Source of the DNA: Oligoflexia bacterium
GTDB taxonomy: Bacteria > Bdellovibrionota > Bdellovibrionia > JABDDW01
Direction: 5' to 3'
Length of the DNA stretch: 64,000 nt
Assembly (NCBI GenBank): GCA_023250675.1
Contig: JAHFAE010000002.1
Location: 7,491-71,490, forward strand
Program-made: the position numbers and the translations under genes
The notes under the pieces: model-generated
The model's database searches: none
Told to the model about the DNA's origin: nothing
The model's input: only the letters and a program-made list of their open reading frames with translations
Shown here: positions 3,875 to 56,156 of the stretch, in pieces
Layout of the letters: each line of letters starts with the position of its first letter
Numbering within the stretch: the first letter of the stretch is position 1

Positions 3875-5227
3875 TTAGTTGAGGCTGGTCCCTTTTATTA
3901 CTTCAACACTATTGGCAATATCCCAAAGATAAGTCTGATATAGATCGCGAATAATACTTGGTCGGGTGGTAAAGAGCATAGTCTCAATGTGTTTATCCCA
4001 TGAATTTGGCGAGGCATTGTAGGTTCCTGCTCCTCCCTCACCGATGTAAATGGAGGGCTCCTGGCCGATTTTTAGAGCCTCCGAAGTCTCTCGTCGCAAA
4101 AGTAAAAAGGCTTTTGCATGCATGGGACCTTTGGGGCCAGAATACTCATAAAGATGGGCCGGATTGTTTGATGAGAGAGTGAGAAGGGGGCCATAGGACT
4201 GCCTTGCTTCACGATACAATTTATTGGCAATGACCCGTCTTGTGAGGGGTTCAAAAATAAAAAACAGCTGTTTGACTAAATTTTCTTTTGAATTAGAAAG
4301 AATCGTAATCTTAACTCCTCGTTTTGCAGCACCTCGCAATGCTTTCAAATGGGGTGGTTGAACTCTAAAAGAAAAAGATTGCCAATATATTTGATCTCCT
4401 GCTTTCGCACTATCGATGAGCTGGGCAATCTTATCATTTATTGGTGTTTGCCCATTTCTTAACCAAGGGGCCTGCAAGTAAAATTCGTCGTTAAAATCTT
4501 GGGGTACTTGAGAATAGTCATATATTTTTTTTGCAGTTCCAGTGCACTTTGTGATTTTTTTTAATGTGTCAAAGACCCAATAAAATTCTTGGGAAACTTT
4601 TTGAGCTATGGGCCCAGAAACGTAGATGTCCGTATCTCTCCACGATTGAACATGTTTTGATTTACCAAGCATCCAGTTATAACCGCCAGTAAAAACATGC
4701 CAACCATCAACAACCATTACTTTTGCATGACTTAATTTTTCTAAATTAATGGTCCATATGGCTTTTAATGATTTTTTGGCAAATTCGAAGAAATAAGGAG
4801 GTGTACCAAAAAAACGAATATCCACCCCGGCTTTTATCATGCGATGAATTTCGGCACGGGTGGTGGGAGGATTACCCCAATAATCAGTAAATACCTTTAC
4901 TTCAATACCTGCTCGGTGTTTTTCGATTAATATATCGGCAAGACTTTTACCTATTTCGTCGTGGGCGTACCATGCGTCAGGTTTAATGGTAAAAGTTGAA
5001 ATGAGAATGGAGTATTTGGCGTGTTTCAAAACTTCAAATTTATGCTTAAACGTTTCGTCAGCCGAAGTGTAAATGGCCGCATTTGAGGTAAGCTGAGTCC
5101 CCTCTATTCTCACGGCGGAGCCTGTAACATTCAAATTTTCTCGGCAATCGGACCCCGAAGAAAAGGCCGTTTCTCCATGGGACTGGAGAAAGAGCACACT
5201 TAACAAGACTTGAACTAAACTTTTCAT
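3875..5227 (-). CDS. Secreted phospholipase D family protein (HKD superfamily). The first HKD motif is intact; the second is divergent.
   Basis: Signal peptide MKSLVQVLLSVLFLQSHG. HAKVMVVDGWHVFTGGYN matches HxKxxxxDxxxxxxGGxN. Second copy reads MHAKAFLLL...GEGGAGTYN. Confidence 0.65.
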   Translation of the reverse strand: MKSLVQVLLSVLFLQSHGETAFSSGSDCRENLNVTGSAVRIEGTQLTSNAAIYTSADETFKHKFEVLKHAKYSILISTFTIKPDAWYAHDEIGKSLADILIEKHRAGIEVKVFTDYWGNPPTTRAEIHRMIKAGVDIRFFGTPPYFFEFAKKSLKAIWTINLEKLSHAKVMVVDGWHVFTGGYNWMLGKSKHVQSWRDTDIYVSGPIAQKVSQEFYWVFDTLKKITKCTGTAKKIYDYSQVPQDFNDEFYLQAPWLRNGQTPINDKIAQLIDSAKAGDQIYWQSFSFRVQPPHLKALRGAAKRGVKITILSNSKENLVKQLFFIFEPLTRRVIANKLYREARQSYGPLLTLSSNNPAHLYEYSGPKGPMHAKAFLLLRRETSEALKIGQEPSIYIGEGGAGTYNASPNSWDKHIETMLFTTRPSIIRDLYQTYLWDIANSVEVIKGTSLN

Positions 5228-5302
5228 GAATACCCTCTATTTTATGCTTCAAGCCATCTTCATATTGAAACCAAAGTCTATGCGTGTTCCAATATTTAAA
5301 GC

Positions 5303-6268
5303 ATGCATTCAATACAATTCAAAAAGAGCCTGGCGCTGGTATTAGTCGTTGTTGCTTTTACCTATGCAACGGCATTGCAAAATGATTTTGTCAATTTTGA
5401 TGATGAGCTTATACTCTTAGAGAATAAACCGGTCAAAGATTTTGATATTTATACCATTTTTACAAAGCCTTTGGCTGAAGACTTTGTCCCCCTTACACTT
5501 CTGACATTTGCCATTGAATATAAGTTCTTTGGACTAAAGCCCTTTATTTACCACCTGGATAACATTATTCTTCATCTACTCAATTGCATTTTGGTATTTT
5601 TTCTCATCATTGAGCTTTCAGGTGAAGATACGAGAATGAGTTTCATTTCAAGCTTGCTCTTTGGGATTCATCCCCTTCATGTAGAATCGGTTAACTGGGT
5701 GGCCGAGAGAAAAGATGTTTTATCCTGTTTTTTCTACCTTTTAAGCTTATTGGTCTATTTGAGGTATTCGAAAACTAAGAAAGTCAGTTTTTATTGGGGT
5801 GCTTTCATTTTTGGAGCAATGGCCATTCTAGCTAAATCTTTTGCCCTGACTCTACCCTTTGTTTTCTTACTTATTGACTATTACCAAGGCGTTAAAATTG
5901 AACTAAAAATAATAATAGAAAAAATTCCTCTTTTTATCGTGTCTTTTTTGAGTATTTTGATTGCTTGGCCTCTTTTGCATGTGATGAGTAACACAGAGAG
6001 CGCAATTTCTATTCAAAATATTATATACGTTGTACCCGCTTTTTGTTTTTACATCAGTCGGTCCGTATTGCCCGTTGGGCTCAGTGTTCTCTACGAAACC
6101 GGGGCCACTCGAATAGGTTTTCTAGCCTATGTCATAACGGGATTGGTAATTTGGGGAATAAATGAATTTGTAAAAACTCATCAGTCTCGAAAAAACCTTA
6201 TCATTTTTGGCTTGGGCTTTTTTCTCATATCTGGTCTCCCTGCATGTCAATTTATCAGAATAAAATGA
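5303..6268 (+). CDS. N-terminal (membrane, DUF1736/GT-C-like) fragment of a TMTC-like O-mannosyltransferase-family protein, terminated by an in-frame TGA. Probably a pseudogene fragment.
   Basis: FVNFDDE...HPLHVESVNWVAERKDVLSCFFYLLSL matches the DUF1736 region of TMTC-like proteins. Same reading frame as the 6335..7006 ORF. The conserved ADRYFYVPSVG motif is encoded between the TGA and the next Met. Confidence 0.55.
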   Translation: MHSIQFKKSLALVLVVVAFTYATALQNDFVNFDDELILLENKPVKDFDIYTIFTKPLAEDFVPLTLLTFAIEYKFFGLKPFIYHLDNIILHLLNCILVFFLIIELSGEDTRMSFISSLLFGIHPLHVESVNWVAERKDVLSCFFYLLSLLVYLRYSKTKKVSFYWGAFIFGAMAILAKSFALTLPFVFLLIDYYQGVKIELKIIIEKIPLFIVSFLSILIAWPLLHVMSNTESAISIQNIIYVVPAFCFYISRSVLPVGLSVLYETGATRIGFLAYVITGLVIWGINEFVKTHQSRKNLIIFGLGFFLISGLPACQFIRIK

Positions 6269-6334
6269 CTTTTCTCTTATGCCGACCGGTATTTTTATGT
6301 TCCCAGTGTAGGACTTCTCCTTTGTTATGGGGTC

Positions 6335-7006
6335 ATGCTTCGCGATTTTTCAAATAAATTATTTAAGCCTTTACTTGTCTTAGTATCTCTATTTTTCGTG
6401 GTACTCAGTGTTGAACGAGTTAGCATTTGGCGAAATACGGGAACGCTATGGGCCGATGTGGTTTCGAAATACCCCACAAGCTCTTATGCGCAGAGAAATT
6501 TGGGAACTTACCTGCATAAGACAGGCAACATGACAGAAGCAAGAGTTCACCTTGAAACGGCCTTAAGACTCAAACCCGATATTCCTGATGCTCATTACAA
6601 CTTAGGTGTAATTTGGATGGACCAAGGTGATTTTGACAAAGCTCTTGAGGAGTTTGATTTAGCCACTGGCTATAAACCAGAATTTGTAGAACCCTTAGCA
6701 ACTTCAGCTTTTATTTATTCTAAAAAAGGCGATCTTGAAAAATCTATTGAGCTCTATAAAAAGGCGCTTATTTGGGATCCTCAAGGGGGATATCTGCATT
6801 TAAATTTAGCCATCGTCTATAACATGAAGGGTGAAAAAGACTTAGCTCTAAATGAATGTTTGCAGGCTATTAAATTAGAATCAAAGTTAGTGAAGGCCCA
6901 TGAAATGCTTGGTCAAATCTACAAAGAATTCGGGAGACAAGCTGACGCTGATCAAGAGTTCATTGTCGCCGATAATTTAGTCAAAGAGGGTAGGGGGATC
7001 CGTTGA
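6335..7006 (+). CDS. C-terminal TPR-repeat fragment of the same TMTC-like gene (in frame with 5303..6268).
   Basis: TPR-like repeats (AHYNLGVIWMDQGDFDKALEEF..., GYLHLNLAIVYNMKGEKDLAL...). Frame continuity with the upstream ORF across a single TGA at 6266-6268. Confidence 0.55.
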   Translation: MLRDFSNKLFKPLLVLVSLFFVVLSVERVSIWRNTGTLWADVVSKYPTSSYAQRNLGTYLHKTGNMTEARVHLETALRLKPDIPDAHYNLGVIWMDQGDFDKALEEFDLATGYKPEFVEPLATSAFIYSKKGDLEKSIELYKKALIWDPQGGYLHLNLAIVYNMKGEKDLALNECLQAIKLESKLVKAHEMLGQIYKEFGRQADADQEFIVADNLVKEGRGIR

Positions 7007-8211
7007 AGCAATTATTGAAAGCTCCAGTTATTGTGGCAGCACTTGGTTATTTCGTCGACATCTATGATTTGCTTTTATTTAACATTGTTCGCGTGCCGAG
7101 CCTTCAATCCATCGGTCTTCACGGTCAAGAATTAAAGATGGGACTTTATCTTAATAACACTCAAATGACGGGGATGATGATAGGCGGAGTTATGTGGGGA
7201 ATCCTCGGAGACAAGAGGGGTAGGCTCTCTGTACTCTTCGGATCTATATTTATTTATTCTGCAGCAAATCTTGCAAATGCTTACGTGACCACATTTCAAC
7301 AGTATGCTTTTCTAAGGTTTGTGGCTGGTCTTGGTTTGGCGGGGGAACTAGGTGCAGGAATAACTCTTGTTTCAGAAATAATTCCAAAACATATGCGAGG
7401 TCTAGGTACCATGTTCGTGGCTACAGTTGGCGTGTCAGGCGCTGTAGTGGCAGCTTTGCTGGCTGAAGTTTTCACATGGCGCACTTGCTATATTATTGGT
7501 GGAGTGCTGGGGCTACTTCTCTTGTTATTACGGATAGGAGTGAGCGAGTCTGGGATGTTTGATAAATTAAAATCCAAAAAAATAAAAAGAGGAAATTTCT
7601 TTCAGCTCTTTATCAGGGCAGACCGACGTCTCCGCTATTTTTGTTGTATCCTCATCGGAATTCCCATTTGGTATATTATCGGGATTCTCGTGGCCTATGC
7701 CCCCGAGTTCAGTAATGCCATCGGTGTCGTTGGAAACATTACTTCTTCCCGGGCCATCATGTTTTGTTACTCAGGCCTTATATTGGGAGACTTTTCTAGC
7801 GGGTATTTGAGCCAGTTATTAGAAAGTCGCAGAAAATCTGTGGCATGGTACTTAGTTATTTCATCGATATTTGTCTTTTGTTATCTCTTCATGCCTATTA
7901 AGTCTGAAAAATTATTTTATGGAGTCTGTTTTGGTTTAGGAATCGCAGCAGGCTATTGGGCAGTTCTGGTGACCATTGCTGTAGAACAATTTGGAACAGA
8001 CTTGCGCGCGACGGCGGGGACTACAGTTCCTAATTTTGTGAGAGGATCTGTAGTACCCATGAGTTTGGCGTTTCTAGCCTTAAAACCTTTTCTTGGATTG
8101 ATTTGGGCTGCAGCCGCCGTAGGAATTGTGGTGCTTTCTATCGCATCCATATCGTTGTTTGGACTCCAAGAAACCTTCGGGCGTGATTTAGATTTTACAG
8201 AAAATACTTAA
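7003..8211 (+). CDS. Major facilitator superfamily (MFS) transporter.
   Basis: 402 aa with 12 predicted TM helices and MFS-like loop motifs (GDKRGR). Start overlaps the upstream stop (ATGA-type coupling). Confidence 0.6.
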   Translation: MKQLLKAPVIVAALGYFVDIYDLLLFNIVRVPSLQSIGLHGQELKMGLYLNNTQMTGMMIGGVMWGILGDKRGRLSVLFGSIFIYSAANLANAYVTTFQQYAFLRFVAGLGLAGELGAGITLVSEIIPKHMRGLGTMFVATVGVSGAVVAALLAEVFTWRTCYIIGGVLGLLLLLLRIGVSESGMFDKLKSKKIKRGNFFQLFIRADRRLRYFCCILIGIPIWYIIGILVAYAPEFSNAIGVVGNITSSRAIMFCYSGLILGDFSSGYLSQLLESRRKSVAWYLVISSIFVFCYLFMPIKSEKLFYGVCFGLGIAAGYWAVLVTIAVEQFGTDLRATAGTTVPNFVRGSVVPMSLAFLALKPFLGLIWAAAAVGIVVLSIASISLFGLQETFGRDLDFTENT

Positions 8212-8678: not shown

Positions 8679-9563
8679 TCAAAAGACCATCATTTTCATG
8701 CAGAAAACCGAGCCGCCTGATTTTAGAAATTCGGAGGTGTCTAAAGCGTGAACATTAAAACCATTTTTCAAAAGTTTCTTTTCAAAGTCGGCATTGCCAC
8801 GCTGAAGCAAAACGTCATGATCATTGGCGCCATGACAATTCGCGGTAAAACTTTTGGAGCATTCTTCTAACCCGGTTTCAATTACATTTTCAAAAACGCT
8901 GCGAATCAGTTTCATCGCTTGGGGTGCCATTGCATCGGGTTGAACAACGGCAGTTTTCGAGTCGATGATAGAAAAGCAAGTATCTAAATGATAAAACTCG
9001 GGGCGAGTGAGCGGAACAAGAATGACATCCCAACCGGTGATTTCTGAAATCTCATTGTAAACTCCTGGATCAGTTCTTGGCCCACATCCTCCCCAAATAA
9101 GTGGGCGATCGGGGTGCTTGAATGCATCTCCGTTTCCCTCAAAACTAAATTTTTCAGAAACGTGATAAATTTCATAGCCCTGATTTTCGTACCAATTTTC
9201 AAAAATACGGACCTCTTCTTTTCTAAAATCAGATCTCATATTACTGATGATGACAGCCGCTCGATTTGTTTTTTGGTTCCAAAACGGAAAACTCTGATTG
9301 GCGCAAAATACAAAGTCTGGGTAGCCTTCAAGTCCCTGTAGAATTTTAACGTTAAACCCAAGTTCTAAATATTTATCGTAAACCGCTTTCCATTGAATTT
9401 GAGCCAATTCTTTATTTGGCTTATTCAGGTGTCCGTCTGCGGTTTTCATATAGGGATTAATCGCATATAAAATATCGTAGTACTCAGGATTTGCCATCAA
9501 GATTTTAGAGGGTAATCTCGTTTGATGTAGTGGCGGAATTTGATCCAGGGTTTCGATGATCAT
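8679..9563 (-). CDS. Amidinotransferase/DDAH/arginine-deiminase superfamily protein.
   Basis: 294 aa with a C-terminal catalytic-Cys context (GGSVFCMKMM), typical of the guanidino-group-modifying enzyme fold. Translationally coupled (ATGA overlap) with the downstream paralogue. Confidence 0.5.
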   Translation of the reverse strand: MIIETLDQIPPLHQTRLPSKILMANPEYYDILYAINPYMKTADGHLNKPNKELAQIQWKAVYDKYLELGFNVKILQGLEGYPDFVFCANQSFPFWNQKTNRAAVIISNMRSDFRKEEVRIFENWYENQGYEIYHVSEKFSFEGNGDAFKHPDRPLIWGGCGPRTDPGVYNEISEITGWDVILVPLTRPEFYHLDTCFSIIDSKTAVVQPDAMAPQAMKLIRSVFENVIETGLEECSKSFTANCHGANDHDVLLQRGNADFEKKLLKNGFNVHALDTSEFLKSGGSVFCMKMMVF

Positions 9564-10342
9564 AGATGACTTTCAAAAATAAGGCTTCGACACGTAAGGC
9601 CGCCTTCAGCTTTCGCAAATTCAAAATTTGGCACTTGGATCAATTTAAACCCTGCATTTTCTATCAGTTTAGTGGTTTTTGGATATTCTTGGCCATAGAT
9701 AAGTTTATCGTCTATGAGCAAGGCGTTTGCCGCAAAGTGTTCTTCTGGGTTTATATTTATGACTTCAAACTCTTTAAATTTTTCCATGTCAATCCACTTT
9801 GGATTTGCCAATACAAAACCGTTTCCTAAAAACGTAATTCCACTTTTTAAATGCAAGCAATCTTGAATATCAACAGCGATAACTTGATAATCACAGGGCA
9901 GCACAAGGTTTTGCAATTGAGTTATGCCAGAATCATTAGTTCTTGCCGAACGTCCCACGTAGAGACGACGCCCGATCATTAATACATCTCCTCCATCAAG
10001 AGTGCCCGGTGATGCAATGGTTCCTATAACTTTTCTCTTTGATAATAATATATTGGCAATACTTGGAACTTCGATGAGTCGTGAAGGAGTCCCAGGCCTA
10101 CAAATGACCGCAATTTCGTTTAGTACGATTGCCCCATCCTCTACAAAGACTCCGTCGGGCGCAAAGTTCAAGGCCTCGAGAAAACTAACCTGTATACCCA
10201 ATGTTGAAAGCGTATGACAGTAATACTCATGTTGTTTCACCAGGAGATGAAAATCAATTGGCCGTCTTTCTAAAAAACTAAGTTCACAATTGACAATAGA
10301 AGGAGAAGGCTTTCGGACAAGGGCTTCGATTCGACTGTTCAT
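9560..10342 (-). CDS. Dimethylarginine dimethylaminohydrolase (DDAH)-like amidinotransferase-superfamily protein.
   Basis: 260 aa with a DGGDVL motif and a C-terminal GGLTCRSL catalytic cysteine. Confidence 0.55.
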   Translation of the reverse strand: MNSRIEALVRKPSPSIVNCELSFLERRPIDFHLLVKQHEYYCHTLSTLGIQVSFLEALNFAPDGVFVEDGAIVLNEIAVICRPGTPSRLIEVPSIANILLSKRKVIGTIASPGTLDGGDVLMIGRRLYVGRSARTNDSGITQLQNLVLPCDYQVIAVDIQDCLHLKSGITFLGNGFVLANPKWIDMEKFKEFEVININPEEHFAANALLIDDKLIYGQEYPKTTKLIENAGFKLIQVPNFEFAKAEGGLTCRSLIFESHL

Positions 10343-25459: not shown

Positions 25460-26068
25460 TTGGAGGTTATTGCTATGAAGGGTTACTTTGTCGGTATCGG
25501 GATAGTTGTCGGAATCGTGCTTCTTTTTGTCCTGTTTTACATGGGGTCCTATAATGGCCTTGTTTCTCGCCAAGAAGCGGTGAACGAGAAATGGAGTCAG
25601 ATTCAAAACGATTACCAGAGAAGATCAGATCTGATTCCCAATCTTGTCAATACAGTTAAAGGTGTCGCGAAATTTGAACAAGACACGCTAACGGCTGTAA
25701 TTACGGCTCGTTCAAAGGTCGGGTCTATGCAACTTGACAAGAATTTGCTTAATGATCCATCTCAATTTAGAAAATTCGAAGAAGCGCAAGGTCAGTTGAG
25801 TTCCGCACTCTCTCGATTGATGGTGGTCGTAGAAAAATATCCAGAACTCAAAGCCACTGCGAATTTCAGTGAGTTGCAATCTCAACTTGAAGGCACAGAA
25901 AATAGAATCACCGTGGCCCGTCGCGATTTCAATTTAGCTGTGAAAGAATATAATACGGCGTTACGAACTGTTCCTACAAACTTTGTCGCCGGTATATCTG
26001 GATTTAAAGAAAGACCGTACTTTGAAGCAGTCACTGGTTCTGAAAAGGCGCCGGAGGTTAAGTTCTAA
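25460..26068 (+). CDS. lemA: LemA family protein.
   Basis: Single N-terminal TM followed by the conserved LemA sequence YNGLVSRQEAVNEKWSQIQNDYQRRSDLIPNLV. Confidence 0.75.
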   Translation: MEVIAMKGYFVGIGIVVGIVLLFVLFYMGSYNGLVSRQEAVNEKWSQIQNDYQRRSDLIPNLVNTVKGVAKFEQDTLTAVITARSKVGSMQLDKNLLNDPSQFRKFEEAQGQLSSALSRLMVVVEKYPELKATANFSELQSQLEGTENRITVARRDFNLAVKEYNTALRTVPTNFVAGISGFKERPYFEAVTGSEKAPEVKF

Positions 26069-26074
26069 CTAGTA

Positions 26075-26971
26075 ATGGCTAGAGCCGATGGGGTCATCGA
26101 AAGATTTATTACCACTGATGGCACACTTCGCCTATCGGCCGTGATTTGTACAAAAGTAATTGAAGAAACAAGAAATATCCATAACTCCTTTCCGGTAGCC
26201 ACGGCTGCCTTGGGCCGATCACTTATAGGAGCAGGACTTTTAGCAAGTTTTCTTAAAAATAAAGGTAGAATTGGTTTGTATTTTAAAGGTGATGGACCCT
26301 TGGGGCCCGTTTTTGCCGAAGGAGATTTTTCGGGACAGGTGAGGGGCTTTGCTTCTTTTCCTCAAATTCATTTGCCAAGTAAAAGTGGCAAACTAGATGT
26401 GGGTGGTGCAGTTGGAAAGGGCGTTTTAAGTGTGGCGACTTCAACGGTCGATAATAAAAAACCTTATATTGGTACAGTCCCATTGCAATCTGGGGAAATC
26501 GGAGACGATATCGCCCATTATTTATTTCAGTCCCAGCAAGTACCGTCAGTAGTTGCCTTGGGAGTTTTCATTGAAGCCGATAATTCTGTAGGGGCAGCTG
26601 GGGGTACGATTTTGCAAGCTATGCCGGGTGTGAAAGAAATCACTTTGAAAACTTTAGAAGAGCGGGTCAAACAGATGCACACAGTTACCGAACTCATCAA
26701 AGCTGGCGGAACAACCAGTGACCTCGCCTACGAGGTTTTAGAAGATTTTAACTTTCGAAAACTAGACGAACGCACAGCGCTTCAGTTTGCGTGTCATTGT
26801 TCTTCAAAAAGAGTGGAGCGGTCTCTTCTTCTTTTGGGCGAAGTTGAACTTCAGGCTTTGGTAGATCGAAATATTGATGCTGAGGTCAATTGCGATTTTT
26901 GCGGCCGTAAGTATCTTGTTGATCTGAACACCCTTAAGGGTCTTTTGAGTCTTTCAAAAAAAAGGGTCTAA
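26075..26971 (+). CDS. hslO: Redox-regulated chaperone Hsp33.
   Basis: C-terminal zinc centre CHCSSK...(x28)...CDFCGRKY (CxC...CxxC). 298 aa. Confidence 0.75.
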   Translation: MARADGVIERFITTDGTLRLSAVICTKVIEETRNIHNSFPVATAALGRSLIGAGLLASFLKNKGRIGLYFKGDGPLGPVFAEGDFSGQVRGFASFPQIHLPSKSGKLDVGGAVGKGVLSVATSTVDNKKPYIGTVPLQSGEIGDDIAHYLFQSQQVPSVVALGVFIEADNSVGAAGGTILQAMPGVKEITLKTLEERVKQMHTVTELIKAGGTTSDLAYEVLEDFNFRKLDERTALQFACHCSSKRVERSLLLLGEVELQALVDRNIDAEVNCDFCGRKYLVDLNTLKGLLSLSKKRV

Positions 26972-51572: not shown

Positions 51573-52805
51573 GTGATCAAATCTGTGTATCTCACTAGAA
51601 AAATGGTTGCCATTTTGCTCACGGGTTTCTCGTCGGGTCTCCCCCTGGCTTTAAGCTGGGGCACTCTTCAAGCTTGGATGAAAGCAGAGAACGTAGACAT
51701 AACCGTGGTTGGTTTGGTCTCTCTCGTGGGATGGCCCTATACGGTAAAGTTCTTGTGGTCACCGCTGATGGATCGTTATTCCCCACCTTTCTTAGGGCGA
51801 CGGCGAGGTTGGATACTTTTAACTCAAGGAGCCCTGGCATTGTCATTGGTGGCCCTGGGTTTTTCTAAACCCTCGGAGTTTCCATTTATGACGGCACTTG
51901 TAGCCGTTTTTGTGGCATTTTTTAGCGCCAGTCAAGACATCGTCGTCGATGCATACCGAACTGTTTTGGTAGAAAAATCAGAGGTTGGACAGGCGTCGTC
52001 TATGTACATTATTGGTTACCGGGTAGGGTATTTGATTTCAACTGGTGGCGCTTTGGTCATGGCAAGTTATATTCCCTGGAAGTGGGTTTATGTCAGCATG
52101 GCTTTACTCATCGGGTTTTGCATGATTGGTACTCTTTTTATGCCTGTGCCGGTGACAAATGCAAAACCTCCTCAATCAATAAAAGACGCTGTTTGGCTCC
52201 CCTTTGTTGATTTTTTTAAAAGAACTGGGTCATTAGAAATCATCGCATTTATTACGCTTTATAAACTTGATACCAACATTGCTCAGGCACTTCTCACACC
52301 GTTTCTCATGGATATGCAGTTTTCACTAACTGATATCGGTGTGGTAAAAAATAGTCTGGGTTTATTTGCGACTATTGCGGGGACACTCATTGCTGGTCGT
52401 TATATGACCCGATTAGGGATCAAAAAATCTCTTTGGATTTTTGGTGCGGTCCAAGGATTTTCAGGTCTTGCCTTTATGGCTCTTGCCCATTTGGGCCATA
52501 ATTATCCCATGCTCGTAGTCGCGACGATTTTGGAATTTTTATGTGGGGGGATGGGTACCGTGGCCTATTCAGGTTTTATCTTAAGCATTTGCAATAAAAG
52601 ATTTTCGGCGACCCAATATGCGTTATTGACGAGTCTTATGGCTCTAACGCGAACCATTGGAATTAGCCCGGCAGGTTACTTGCAAAAATTTGTGGGCTGG
52701 GAAATGTACTTTTTTATCTCAGTGATAGTGATGGTGCCCGGACTCATATTTTTGTTTCGTTATGATCGTTGGGAAGCGCCCAATGAAGATGCTGTCGCTT
52801 ATTAA
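51573..52805 (+). CDS. ampG: AmpG family muropeptide MFS transporter.
   Basis: N-terminal GFSSGLPLALSWGTLQAWM...LVGWPYTVKFLWSPLMDRY closely matches AmpG family conservation. Confidence 0.7.
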   Translation: MIKSVYLTRKMVAILLTGFSSGLPLALSWGTLQAWMKAENVDITVVGLVSLVGWPYTVKFLWSPLMDRYSPPFLGRRRGWILLTQGALALSLVALGFSKPSEFPFMTALVAVFVAFFSASQDIVVDAYRTVLVEKSEVGQASSMYIIGYRVGYLISTGGALVMASYIPWKWVYVSMALLIGFCMIGTLFMPVPVTNAKPPQSIKDAVWLPFVDFFKRTGSLEIIAFITLYKLDTNIAQALLTPFLMDMQFSLTDIGVVKNSLGLFATIAGTLIAGRYMTRLGIKKSLWIFGAVQGFSGLAFMALAHLGHNYPMLVVATILEFLCGGMGTVAYSGFILSICNKRFSATQYALLTSLMALTRTIGISPAGYLQKFVGWEMYFFISVIVMVPGLIFLFRYDRWEAPNEDAVAY

Positions 52806-52812
52806 AAGTTTT

Positions 52813-54426
52813 TTATTTCTTACAGGTAATATTGTGCTCTTTAACCATCAAAACCGCATCGGGATTTTGGGGGTCCAGGTCCATAGACCGACATAAAGAG
52901 ATAATGGCTTTTTGGGTTTGACCTGAACGAAACTGTGCCCCCGCAATGACAGAATAAAATGATGAAAAATAGGCCCATGCCTCTTTGTTAGCTAAAATCA
53001 TTTCATCAGGGGGAAGCCTCGGCGCCACAGTCTCTAGAATTTCTTTATCTTTTTTGAGTCTACCAAGAGCTATGGCATAGTTAGCAAAAGTCACAGCATT
53101 TTCAGGAAAAATATCAGATGCTTTTTTCGCCAGTTTTGCCGCCAGCTCTAAATCGCCATCTTGAGTAGCAAAATTGCTCATTGCGTTTAATGCGCCGACA
53201 CCTGTTGGGTTAATTTTAAGCATGTGGGCGAAAAAAGCGCGGTCGTCCTTCCAGTGGAGGCTCGTGGAAATTGACGTGATGGCCAACCCCCCAATAATTA
53301 AGCCTCCCCCCCAATTTTGGCCCCTATTTTTTGGGTTTAAATCTGCAAAACTTGAAACAATTTGTGCGATAAAAAGGGAGACGCCAAACATGGGAAGGTA
53401 CATATAGTGGTCGGCCACTGTTGAAGTGTGTTGAAATGCAAAAGGTATAAGGCCTAGAACGGGTAAGAGCAAAGCGGCTGAGCTAAAGAATCCCCCATTT
53501 AAAATACGAGAATCTTTATTTTTTCTTGTGAGCAGAAAAATGACGAGAACAAAAACAATCAAACCAGTTAGAAAATAAGTCTGATTTTCTAAGACCCACT
53601 GGGGTTTTCTCCCGTAGTCGGGCCCCAAGTTAAATGGCAAAACCAATTTGACCAAATAAAAACCTAAAGCATCTATTGCTACGAGGGGCCGCTGCCACAG
53701 CGGAGTATCTGGGGCTTGAGCATATCCTTGCGCCATTTTGGTAACGTAGATAAGAGGTAAAGAGACGACAAACCAGGGTATAAGTCTTTTAAATTGTTTT
53801 TTTATTTGTTCACGACAAAGAAAAAAGCTACCAACCAAGATCCCTGCGGGTACTGAAATGATGGACGGTTTTGATAACATTCCAAAGAAAAACAAGCCCG
53901 TGGCCAATAAATTAGATTTTAGACTCGAGTTGCGCAAGAAAATGTAAACAGCAATCAAAGAAAACGTCGCACCGAGAAGATCTCGCATTCCAGATGCCCA
54001 GGCGACAGTTTCTACCTGAAGGGGGTGAACAGCAAAAATAAGAGCACCCGCCAATGCGGGCCTCATTTTTTCAACTTTTTGGACACCATGACGATCAAGA
54101 ATAATTTGCAAAATTTGAAATACTAAAAAACTATTGATGCAGTGAAAAACAATATTAAATAAATGACAAGCCCAACTTAACGGCATGATTTGACCGAGAG
54201 CAAGAATTTTCCAAACAGTAAAGGTTACGGGAATATAGAGTCCGTAATAACTATGAAGCCAAAAGGCACTTAAGCCTTCTGTTTCCATCCACACATTTCT
54301 GAAAATATTGACGTCATCGTCCCATGACAAAAATGTAAAACCGAGTGAAGCTCCGTATATGGCAAAACAAACTATGAGAATGAGAAAAAATATATTATTA
54401 CTTTTTTTGAACATATAAATTATCAA
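52813..54426 (-). CDS. TMTC-like GT-C membrane protein (DUF1736) with C-terminal TPR repeats. Intact paralogue of the disrupted gene at 5303-7006.
   Basis: FLSWDDDVNIFRN...HPLQVETVAWASGMRDLLGATFSL...ADHYMYLPMFGV plus a C-terminal TPR region. Confidence 0.6.
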   Translation of the reverse strand: MIIYMFKKSNNIFFLILIVCFAIYGASLGFTFLSWDDDVNIFRNVWMETEGLSAFWLHSYYGLYIPVTFTVWKILALGQIMPLSWACHLFNIVFHCINSFLVFQILQIILDRHGVQKVEKMRPALAGALIFAVHPLQVETVAWASGMRDLLGATFSLIAVYIFLRNSSLKSNLLATGLFFFGMLSKPSIISVPAGILVGSFFLCREQIKKQFKRLIPWFVVSLPLIYVTKMAQGYAQAPDTPLWQRPLVAIDALGFYLVKLVLPFNLGPDYGRKPQWVLENQTYFLTGLIVFVLVIFLLTRKNKDSRILNGGFFSSAALLLPVLGLIPFAFQHTSTVADHYMYLPMFGVSLFIAQIVSSFADLNPKNRGQNWGGGLIIGGLAITSISTSLHWKDDRAFFAHMLKINPTGVGALNAMSNFATQDGDLELAAKLAKKASDIFPENAVTFANYAIALGRLKKDKEILETVAPRLPPDEMILANKEAWAYFSSFYSVIAGAQFRSGQTQKAIISLCRSMDLDPQNPDAVLMVKEHNITCKK

Positions 54427-54479: not shown

Positions 54480-56156
54480 ATGAAGAAAAAGGGAATTTTA
54501 GAAGCTACTTTCATCGTGCTCATTACTTCTTACTTTCTATGGTTTGCTTACATTCTTATATTTAGCAATTACTGGGATTGGGATCAGCAATTGAGCCTCC
54601 TAGAAATAGAAAGGCGTTCGTGGATAAATGATTTTCACTGGCCCCTTTGGTCCTATCAACTTTGTGGGGGGGTGAGCAGAGCTGGCGACCCCCAATCCTA
54701 CGGGTTATCTCCCTTATTTTTAATACCCCTAATTTTCGGGTCCTTTATAGGTTCAAAAATCTTGGTTTTTTTCTCAAGCATTTTGGGTTTTTGGTATTTA
54801 AGAAAATTACTTCTTTTACTGGGCTATTGGTGGCTCCCCAATAATGATTCGAGTTCTAAAAACTACGTTGCTACCACACTAAGTCTATTGACGGTTTTTC
54901 AAAATTATTTTTTATGGAATTTTTTTGCAGGCCACCTTGTTTATCTTAATGTTTATCTGAGTTTTGGAGTAATTTATTATTTGGTTTACGCCTATGATTC
55001 TAAACTCACGAGACGAGACTACGTCAAAGCTACTTTACTTTCGATTTGTGTATTCGCAGGGGGAATTCAACTATTAGCCCTTTTTATCTTGGTTCCCCTC
55101 TTCCTTTTTCTCATTTTATTGGTTTTACCTTATTTACTAATGAAAAAAGTAAAACTTCGACATGAGTTATTAAAATCTTGGAGTTTTTTAGGTTTGGGTC
55201 TTTTAGTGGCAAGTATTAAATTCTACTTTATTGTTTCGTACCAAAACAAGTTTCCAAGAGTCTTGGCGGCCCATGATCCAGAATTTTATGACCCCACCCT
55301 TTTGCTTAAATTTTTATTTGTCCCCACTCAAGGATTCAGATTTTGGGATGGTTCAGAATCGCCAGGGCCCTGGTCCATATGGGAGTATAGTTTTTTCAGC
55401 CCACTGAATTATCTTTTTATTTTTTTCTTATTTATTAGAATGCGTTTTTCTAAAACGTATATTCAATTAAAATATTCTCAGAAAAGACTTTTAATACTTT
55501 GGGTGGTGTTTGGCGTACTTTGCGTTTTTCTATTTTTGGGAGAATTTAGCTGGTGGTCGCCGTTTGGTCTTCTTAATAGGGCTTTATTTTCTAACTCTAT
55601 TCGTGCCCCTGTCAGATATATTTTTCCATTTTTGCTGGGGATCCCGTTCGTACTTTATTTTCTGATATTAAACCTTCAAGTTCGTAAAACAGAATATTTA
55701 AAATACTTTTCAATAGCCTTACTCATCGTAGGCCTTTGTGGTTTTAATTCTGTTTCAGACCTTGTTGACAAAATCGGAACAGAAAAAATTTGGAACCTCC
55801 AAAATAGTCCTCTGAAAATGCGACAAATGACTGGAGGCGATCCCGTTCATATGTACAGTCAAATTCTTATGGGACGCGCCATGGTCAATTGTTACCAGCC
55901 CCTCTCCTACCCTTTCTTATTTCCTGAAGTGGGAAGAAACGACTTAGTAGACCTTATCTTCGACTCCCAACGAAAAGAAAACCCTCGTTGCCAACAAGAG
56001 AGTTATTTTACAGAAAACGACATCGTTATTTCGCCAGATTGTTCTAGCCAAGTTTGCGTAAACCTCAATGCCATTAATATTTATAAGAAATCAGAGTTTG
56101 AATTTAATACTCAAAAAAATAGGTACTGTCGCAAGCTCGTTAATCTAGGAAAATGA
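54480..56156 (+). CDS. Large polytopic membrane protein of unknown function (possible GT-C/YfhO-like envelope glycosyltransferase; speculative).
   Basis: 558 aa with more than 12 hydrophobic helices and a hydrophilic C-terminal ~130-aa domain containing 6 Cys. Confidence 0.45.
   Translation: MKKKGILEATFIVLITSYFLWFAYILIFSNYWDWDQQLSLLEIERRSWINDFHWPLWSYQLCGGVSRAGDPQSYGLSPLFLIPLIFGSFIGSKILVFFSSILGFWYLRKLLLLLGYWWLPNNDSSSKNYVATTLSLLTVFQNYFLWNFFAGHLVYLNVYLSFGVIYYLVYAYDSKLTRRDYVKATLLSICVFAGGIQLLALFILVPLFLFLILLVLPYLLMKKVKLRHELLKSWSFLGLGLLVASIKFYFIVSYQNKFPRVLAAHDPEFYDPTLLLKFLFVPTQGFRFWDGSESPGPWSIWEYSFFSPLNYLFIFFLFIRMRFSKTYIQLKYSQKRLLILWVVFGVLCVFLFLGEFSWWSPFGLLNRALFSNSIRAPVRYIFPFLLGIPFVLYFLILNLQVRKTEYLKYFSIALLIVGLCGFNSVSDLVDKIGTEKIWNLQNSPLKMRQMTGGDPVHMYSQILMGRAMVNCYQPLSYPFLFPEVGRNDLVDLIFDSQRKENPRCQQESYFTENDIVISPDCSSQVCVNLNAINIYKKSEFEFNTQKNRYCRKLVNLGK

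Follow-up and report, generated by a model that had tools for sequence, protein, structure and literature searches.

A TMTC-like membrane glycosyltransferase gene interrupted by a single in-frame TGA codon in a bacterial contig

The 64-kb stretch of DNA analysed here (hereafter, the window) contains two open reading frames (ORFs) that share the same frame, 5303-6268 (321 aa) and 6335-7006 (223 aa; Table 1). Translated as a whole, 5303-7006 comprises 567 codons with a single internal stop, the TGA of codon 322 (6266-6268 on the plus strand, context AAA TGA C). The sequence around the stop reads ...ATC AGA ATA AAA TGA CTT TTC TCT TAT GCC GAC CGG TAT TTT TAT.... This TGA is the sole stop in the frame from 5300 to 7006, confirming the description in the initial annotation of an interruption by one in-frame TGA. 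The exact 321-aa and 223-aa products are present in the public protein collection, both on one 78,795-bp contig; the split was therefore already in the deposited record.

A six-frame scan of the 64-kb window revealed two sites at which a single stop separates open segments that each span 100 codons or more. The other same-frame pair besides the TGA locus was 25460-26068 and 26075-26971, with a TAA between them. This candidate for a second split gene (25460-26971, plus strand) was rejected, as the two segments encode LemA and Hsp33 and are two complete, unrelated genes; they lie in one frame with the TAA plus two codons between them. At the TGA locus itself, an out-of-frame ATG at 6265-6267 overlaps the premature stop (ATGA). 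Such an ATGA overlap is a classic coupling arrangement; this ATG was dismissed as probably meaningless, given that it opens an ORF of only 30 codons that ends, as read by eye, at a TAA.

Table 1. Features of the interrupted locus, its downstream neighbour and the distant family member in the window.
Feature	Position	Strand	Content
Upstream ORF, 321 codons	5303..6265	+	TM1-TM9 of GT-C glycosyltransferase domain
Upstream ORF motifs	D33-D34 (DD motif, 5399-5404), R136-K137-D138, K178
In-frame TGA followed by C, codon 322	6266..6268	+	Loop of residues 316-327 after TM9 (model)
22 in-frame codons, LFSYADRYFYVPSVGLLLCYGV, with no codon serving as start	6269..6334	+	ADRYxYxPS motif and start of TM10
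DRYFY	6284-6298	+	Residues 328-332
Downstream ORF, 223 codons	6335..7006	+	End of TM10, TM11 (351-375 of joined protein), about five TPR repeats
MFS transporter gene	7003..8211	+	MFS_1, 1e-22; TTG start
Intact distant GT-C/TPR member, 537 aa	52813..54426	-	24% identity, motif ADHYMYLP

When the two products were joined with X at the stop, the closest homologue among the matches listed was the 572-aa protein P0002 (E 2.5e-175, 49% identity, 99% coverage). The search with the joined product matched 6,972 of the 8,000 scored candidates at E <= 0.001. The best 120 homologues covered 89-99% of the query, and none of them was split except the window's own fragment (P0001); likewise, the sole fragment-sized match among those listed was the window's own 321-aa product. 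The read-through product also aligned over the stop to 22 further homologues, and the 24-sequence alignment was gap-free at this point (FIRIK-x-LFSYADRYFYVPSVG versus IIRFK-T-LYSYADRYFYIPSIG in P0002). This gap-free alignment over the stop to P0002 and 22 others argues that the interruption is not due to chance, and 5303-7006 is, judged from the sequence, one gene. The comparison with orthologues that had been proposed as a check gave the same picture: P0002 and all other listed matches except P0001 are continuous at the site, which speaks against a natural split.

The alignment column occupied by the TGA is variable (P, E, N, T, H or S; Thr in P0002), suggesting a variable loop position at which any sense codon would be tolerated. 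Given that the Thr codon (ACN) of P0002 is two changes away from TGA, P0002 does not give the ancestral codon at the site. A scan of a one-genome-per-species set and of JGI metagenome contigs yielded nothing above 29% identity, or above 37% over a partial match. For the polyphosphate kinase Ppk1 encoded in the window, the best non-self matches had 68-69% identity, and the closest source-named matches, at 58-65% identity, were labelled MAG: Oligoflexia bacterium. These identities and labels indicate that the window probably derives from a metagenome-assembled genome (MAG) of an uncultured Oligoflexia-like (Bdellovibrionota) lineage.

The initial annotation had proposed a GT-C membrane glycosyltransferase carrying TPRs, as in TMTC proteins, and this architecture was borne out by the Pfam TPR matches and an AlphaFold2 model. 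TPR families matched within residues 323-567 (TPR_2, 3.8e-23; TPR_11, 1.4e-22; TPR_1, 1.5e-21). The Pfam family PMT_2 (PF13231) scored below its gathering threshold of 26.1 bits with the fragment (18.7 bits), the joined TM domain (17.9 bits) and P0002 (24.7 bits), and NCBIfam provided no model for the membrane domain. This confident model, computed for the joined protein from the 24-sequence alignment (mean pLDDT 90.1, pTM 0.87), has a multi-pass TM domain with a GT-C fold, in which TM1 corresponds to helix 4-26 and TM9 to helix 294-315, and a C-terminal TPR array after the last TM helix, with TPR helices from approximately residue 379. An acidic DD motif is located in the first extracytoplasmic loop, after TM1, where D33-D34 are invariant in the 24 sequences; R136-K137-D138 and K178 are also invariant or near-invariant in the alignment. 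The predicted helix pattern fits the 11-TM topology described for TMTCs (PMC7801869) and would place the TPRs on the same side as the catalytic loops, which in a bacterium is the periplasm.

The peptide encoded between the stop and the next Met had been described as a conserved motif of the DUF1736/TMTC family and as aligning with the minus-strand ORF at 52813-54426. The alignment of LFSYADRYFYVPSVGLLL with ADHYMYLPMFGV of that ORF was reproduced, and the conservation within the family also held: LFSYADRYFYVPSVGLLL holds the most conserved motif of the family, with A327, D328, R329, Y330, Y332, P334 and G337 at least 90% conserved, the D, R and Y residues of DRYFY (residues 328-332) 91-100% conserved, and A327-D328-R329-Y330-x-Y332-x-P334 near-invariant in the alignment. 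The DUF1736 part of the claim did not hold. Even at E <= 10, Pfam detected no DUF1736 (PF08409) in P0002, in the product of 52813-54426 or in the joined TM domain, and the family was absent from the precomputed Pfam entries listed for the homologues. Moreover, DUF1736 is the TM7-TM8 loop in TMTCs (PMC7801869), whereas the motif found here is located in the loop after TM9.

Seven motifs have been described in TMTC1-4; M1 is the DD in loop EL1, and M7, with the pattern ERxxY, belongs to EL5, the loop that connects TM9 to TM10 (PMC7801869). [quoted passage not shown] In the joined protein, the (E/D)RxxY motif of the TM9-TM10 loop is represented by DRYFY, after helix 294-315, and its pattern and position suggest that it is the M7 equivalent. 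For annotation, the conserved loop motif is thus to be assigned to the TM9-TM10 loop (donor-phosphate binding) and not to DUF1736. D328-R329 lie six codons past the stop; DRYFY is encoded 3' of the TGA and is hence untranslated in the sequence as written. Since no in-frame ATG, GTG or TTG was found between the stop and the ATG at 6335, no two-ORF model translates the motif.

Among known systems, the eukaryotic TMTC1-4 O-mannosyltransferases (GT-C/PMT clan) and the fungal PMT family (Pmt1/2/4, GT39) are among the closest. Compared by published motifs (PMC7801869), the bacterial protein resembles TMTC1-4 in its architecture, with extracytoplasmic TPRs after some 11 TM helices, and in its sequence features: a DD in the first loop, RKD as an RxD-like motif, a conserved Lys in loop 3 and (D/E)RxxY between TM9 and TM10. 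In contrast to TMTC1-4, however, DUF1736 was not detected in the bacterial protein and PMT_2 remained sub-threshold, the bacterial alignment showed no evident counterpart of SHKSYRP, of DW or of the metal-binding Glu in the TMTC motif KE(T/Q)xxT, only about five TPRs are present, and the putative donor is a bacterial polyprenyl phosphate sugar. ArnT, the lipid A aminoarabinose transferase (GT83), differs in its 13 TM helices, another soluble periplasmic domain, a lipid acceptor and the lack of TPRs. Full-length prokaryotic TMTC homologues exist and are uncharacterised, and human TMTC3 matches a deltaproteobacterial homologue with an E-value of 3e-47 (PMC7801869). JGI names several of the homologues found here 'protein O-mannosyl-transferase'. 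TMTC-like genes are common in environmental bacteria, and the interrupted locus gives no new handle on their acceptors, sugars or function.

To estimate the age of the lesion, sequence conservation on both sides of the stop was compared. Ahead of the stop, 51% of the residues are identical to P0002; past it, the value is 54% for the EL5-TM11 segment and 39% for the TPRs, which are also the less conserved region in most other homologues. Downstream of the stop, the relative rates against 21 outgroups were similar, with a mean identity of 27.7% for the window and 27.3% for P0002, and 452 unique changes in the window compared with 472 in the intact P0002. All near-invariant residues downstream of the stop are intact. 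Thus, the relative-rate comparison with 21 outgroups gave no sign of relaxed constraint downstream of the stop, and this lack of extra divergence implies that the stop is very recent, an artefact or tolerated. Read with the standard code, 92.5% of the window falls within ORFs of 100 aa or longer, and no other gene in it is interrupted; the source genome is therefore not decaying.

We favour the view that codon 322 of a full-length TMTC-like gene has undergone a genuine nonsense substitution, very recent on an evolutionary scale; to this we assign a probability of roughly 0.5, and we infer that the base call is real. The main competing explanation is that the TGA is an artefact of assembly, base calling or consensus building, or a minor variant fixed in the MAG consensus, so that the actual gene is intact and encodes a 567-residue enzyme. 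This is possible, though we consider it rather doubtful. The absent decay fits such an error equally well, as the conserved downstream residues are intact with no extra divergence past the stop, and the rest of the window is free of interrupted genes. The contig also belongs to an uncultured lineage, with the nearest orthologue only 49% identical, and is probably from a MAG; consensus artefacts and strain mixtures occur in MAG contigs, and the variable loop position would tolerate any sense codon. However, substitution errors are rare in consensus assemblies, the stop lies outside any low-complexity run that could explain a miscall, and an indel would shift the frame, which is unshifted. In addition, the same two fragments appear in the public annotation, so the base stands in the deposited record.

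Deliberate read-through, yielding a truncated TM1-9 protein together with a regulated full-length enzyme, is improbable, and it is more improbable still that UGA-C has been kept as a leaky stop by which the truncated TM1-9 product is balanced against a small amount of full-length periplasmic protein glycosyltransferase; if true, a bacterial envelope-glycosylation gene would here be regulated by stop-codon read-through. The stop context (UGA followed by C) is consistent with these ideas, given that UGAC is reportedly the weakest termination signal in E. coli, and in the window TGAC ends only two of the 46 long ORFs (at least 200 aa), the interrupted ORF being one of them. The downstream frame is also fully preserved, and basal UGA read-through in E. 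coli reaches 2-4% (PMC10570021). In contrast, no stable RNA structure was found past the stop (z-score 0.25 versus shuffled sequences for the 91 nt around and after it), Rfam had no match in 5000-7300, and there is no tRNA gene in the window. The stop is also not conserved, with P0002 and all other listed homologues except P0001 having a sense codon, and the aligned column is never Cys, contrary to what selenocysteine would lead one to expect. A selenocysteine or structured read-through element was accordingly rejected on the z-score of 0.25, the missing Rfam match, the lack of a tRNA gene in the window, the absence of Cys and the non-conserved UGA. A natural split, in which the GT-C core and a TPR protein anchored in the membrane act together as products of two genes, would be compatible with the length of both ORFs and their separate annotation in the public record. 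In the model, the 223-aa product would start near the cytoplasmic end of TM10 and keep TM11 and the periplasmic TPRs, a plausible topology, and a G-rich stretch (GGGG) is located 4-7 nt upstream of the ATG at 6335. This stretch is not informative as a test of that start, because only about 14 of the 48 putative starts in the window (taking the first possible start) have a Shine-Dalgarno-like motif. The split would nevertheless leave 22 codons with the most conserved motif and no in-frame start untranslated, none of the best 120 homologues is split apart from the window's own P0001, and no promoter-like or terminator-like site is found between the ORFs; together, these observations make a natural functional split very unlikely. 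Finally, TGA encoding an amino acid (genetic code 4 or 25) would find support in codon 322 alone and is barely conceivable. The check on other uses of TGA that had been suggested showed it to be a normal stop, ending 15 of the 46 long ORFs. The TGA of codon 322 is the one instance in the window of this codon linking open segments that are each 100 codons or longer, and the 92.5% coverage by ORFs of at least 100 aa was obtained with the standard code. Code reassignment was rejected on this stop-codon usage.

Under the favoured reading of a recent nonsense substitution, the full-length enzyme would consist of an 11-helix GT-C domain followed by a periplasmic TPR array for substrate binding, and we infer that its sugar donor is a polyprenyl-phosphate-sugar. 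Translation as written would stop at the periplasmic end of TM9. The resulting 321-residue fragment would keep the catalytic DD loop, but TM10-11, the TPR domain and the DRxxY loop, whose Arg binds the donor phosphate in related enzymes, would be lost. By analogy with other GT-C enzymes, it should be inactive, implying a young pseudogene or, within the population sampled, a segregating loss-of-function allele. If the 223-aa ORF were translated, its product would span the membrane by TM11, with a short end in the cytoplasm and the TPRs in the periplasm, and no enzyme attached. In wild-type E. coli, read-through of a UGA reporter is approximately 2% at 37 C and 4% at 25 C, with Trp-tRNA competing with RF2 (PMC10570021). 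If the UGA at codon 322 is as leaky, full-length enzyme would still be produced by a small share of the ribosomes. A real stop could thus plausibly allow a few percent of complete enzyme carrying Trp at the tolerant loop position, by passive leakage and not as a programmed event.

The TTG start of the MFS transporter gene and the stop of the TPR ORF share a 4-nt overlap, and the transporter gene is a probable operon partner; given the overlap, the premature stop could lower its expression by polarity. Compared with ordinary bacterial nonsense pseudogenes and segregating loss-of-function alleles, the locus is alike in having one premature stop in an otherwise intact, conserved frame, and it shows no secondary lesions and nothing distinguishing. 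The finding is an ordinary one, either a very recent gene break or an assembly error. In annotation, both ORFs would be better merged into a single interrupted gene. A real stop would mean that the loss of one family member, out of at least two, is under way or has only just been completed in this lineage.

The second family member is the one at 52813-54426, which had been regarded as an intact paralogue that might make the interrupted copy redundant. It is intact and belongs to the family, its product aligning with the interrupted protein over 534 columns (24% identity, E 2e-24) and keeping the DD, HPLQVETVAW and the loop motif with His for Arg (ADHYMYLP). Redundancy, on the other hand, is not supported by the 24% identity, the His for Arg and the TPRs, which are degenerate and fall under the Pfam thresholds. 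This product may represent a functionally diverged subfamily. The His in place of the near-invariant Arg (ADHYMYLP) is common to it and one other homologue, P0014. No further GT-C family member was found in the 64-kb window.

Several minor observations were made in the window. An MFS transporter gene adjoins both GT-C/TPR genes (7003-8211 and 51573-52805, both on the plus strand), which may be a coincidence. The latter encodes an AmpG-family muropeptide transporter (427 bits) and ends 7 nt from the 3' end of the family member at 52813-54426, on the opposite strand. Close to that family member, a 558-aa ORF (54480-56156, plus strand) belongs to no Pfam or NCBIfam family and has a weak match to 7TMR-DISM_7TM (17.7 bits). 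Among the four-base stops of the 46 long ORFs, TGAC (two, one of them premature) and TAGC (one) are rare. On the minus strand, 8679-9563 and 9560-10342 are tandem, overlapping genes of the dimethylargininase/arginine dihydrolase (amidinotransferase) superfamily, both scoring far under the equivalog cut-offs.
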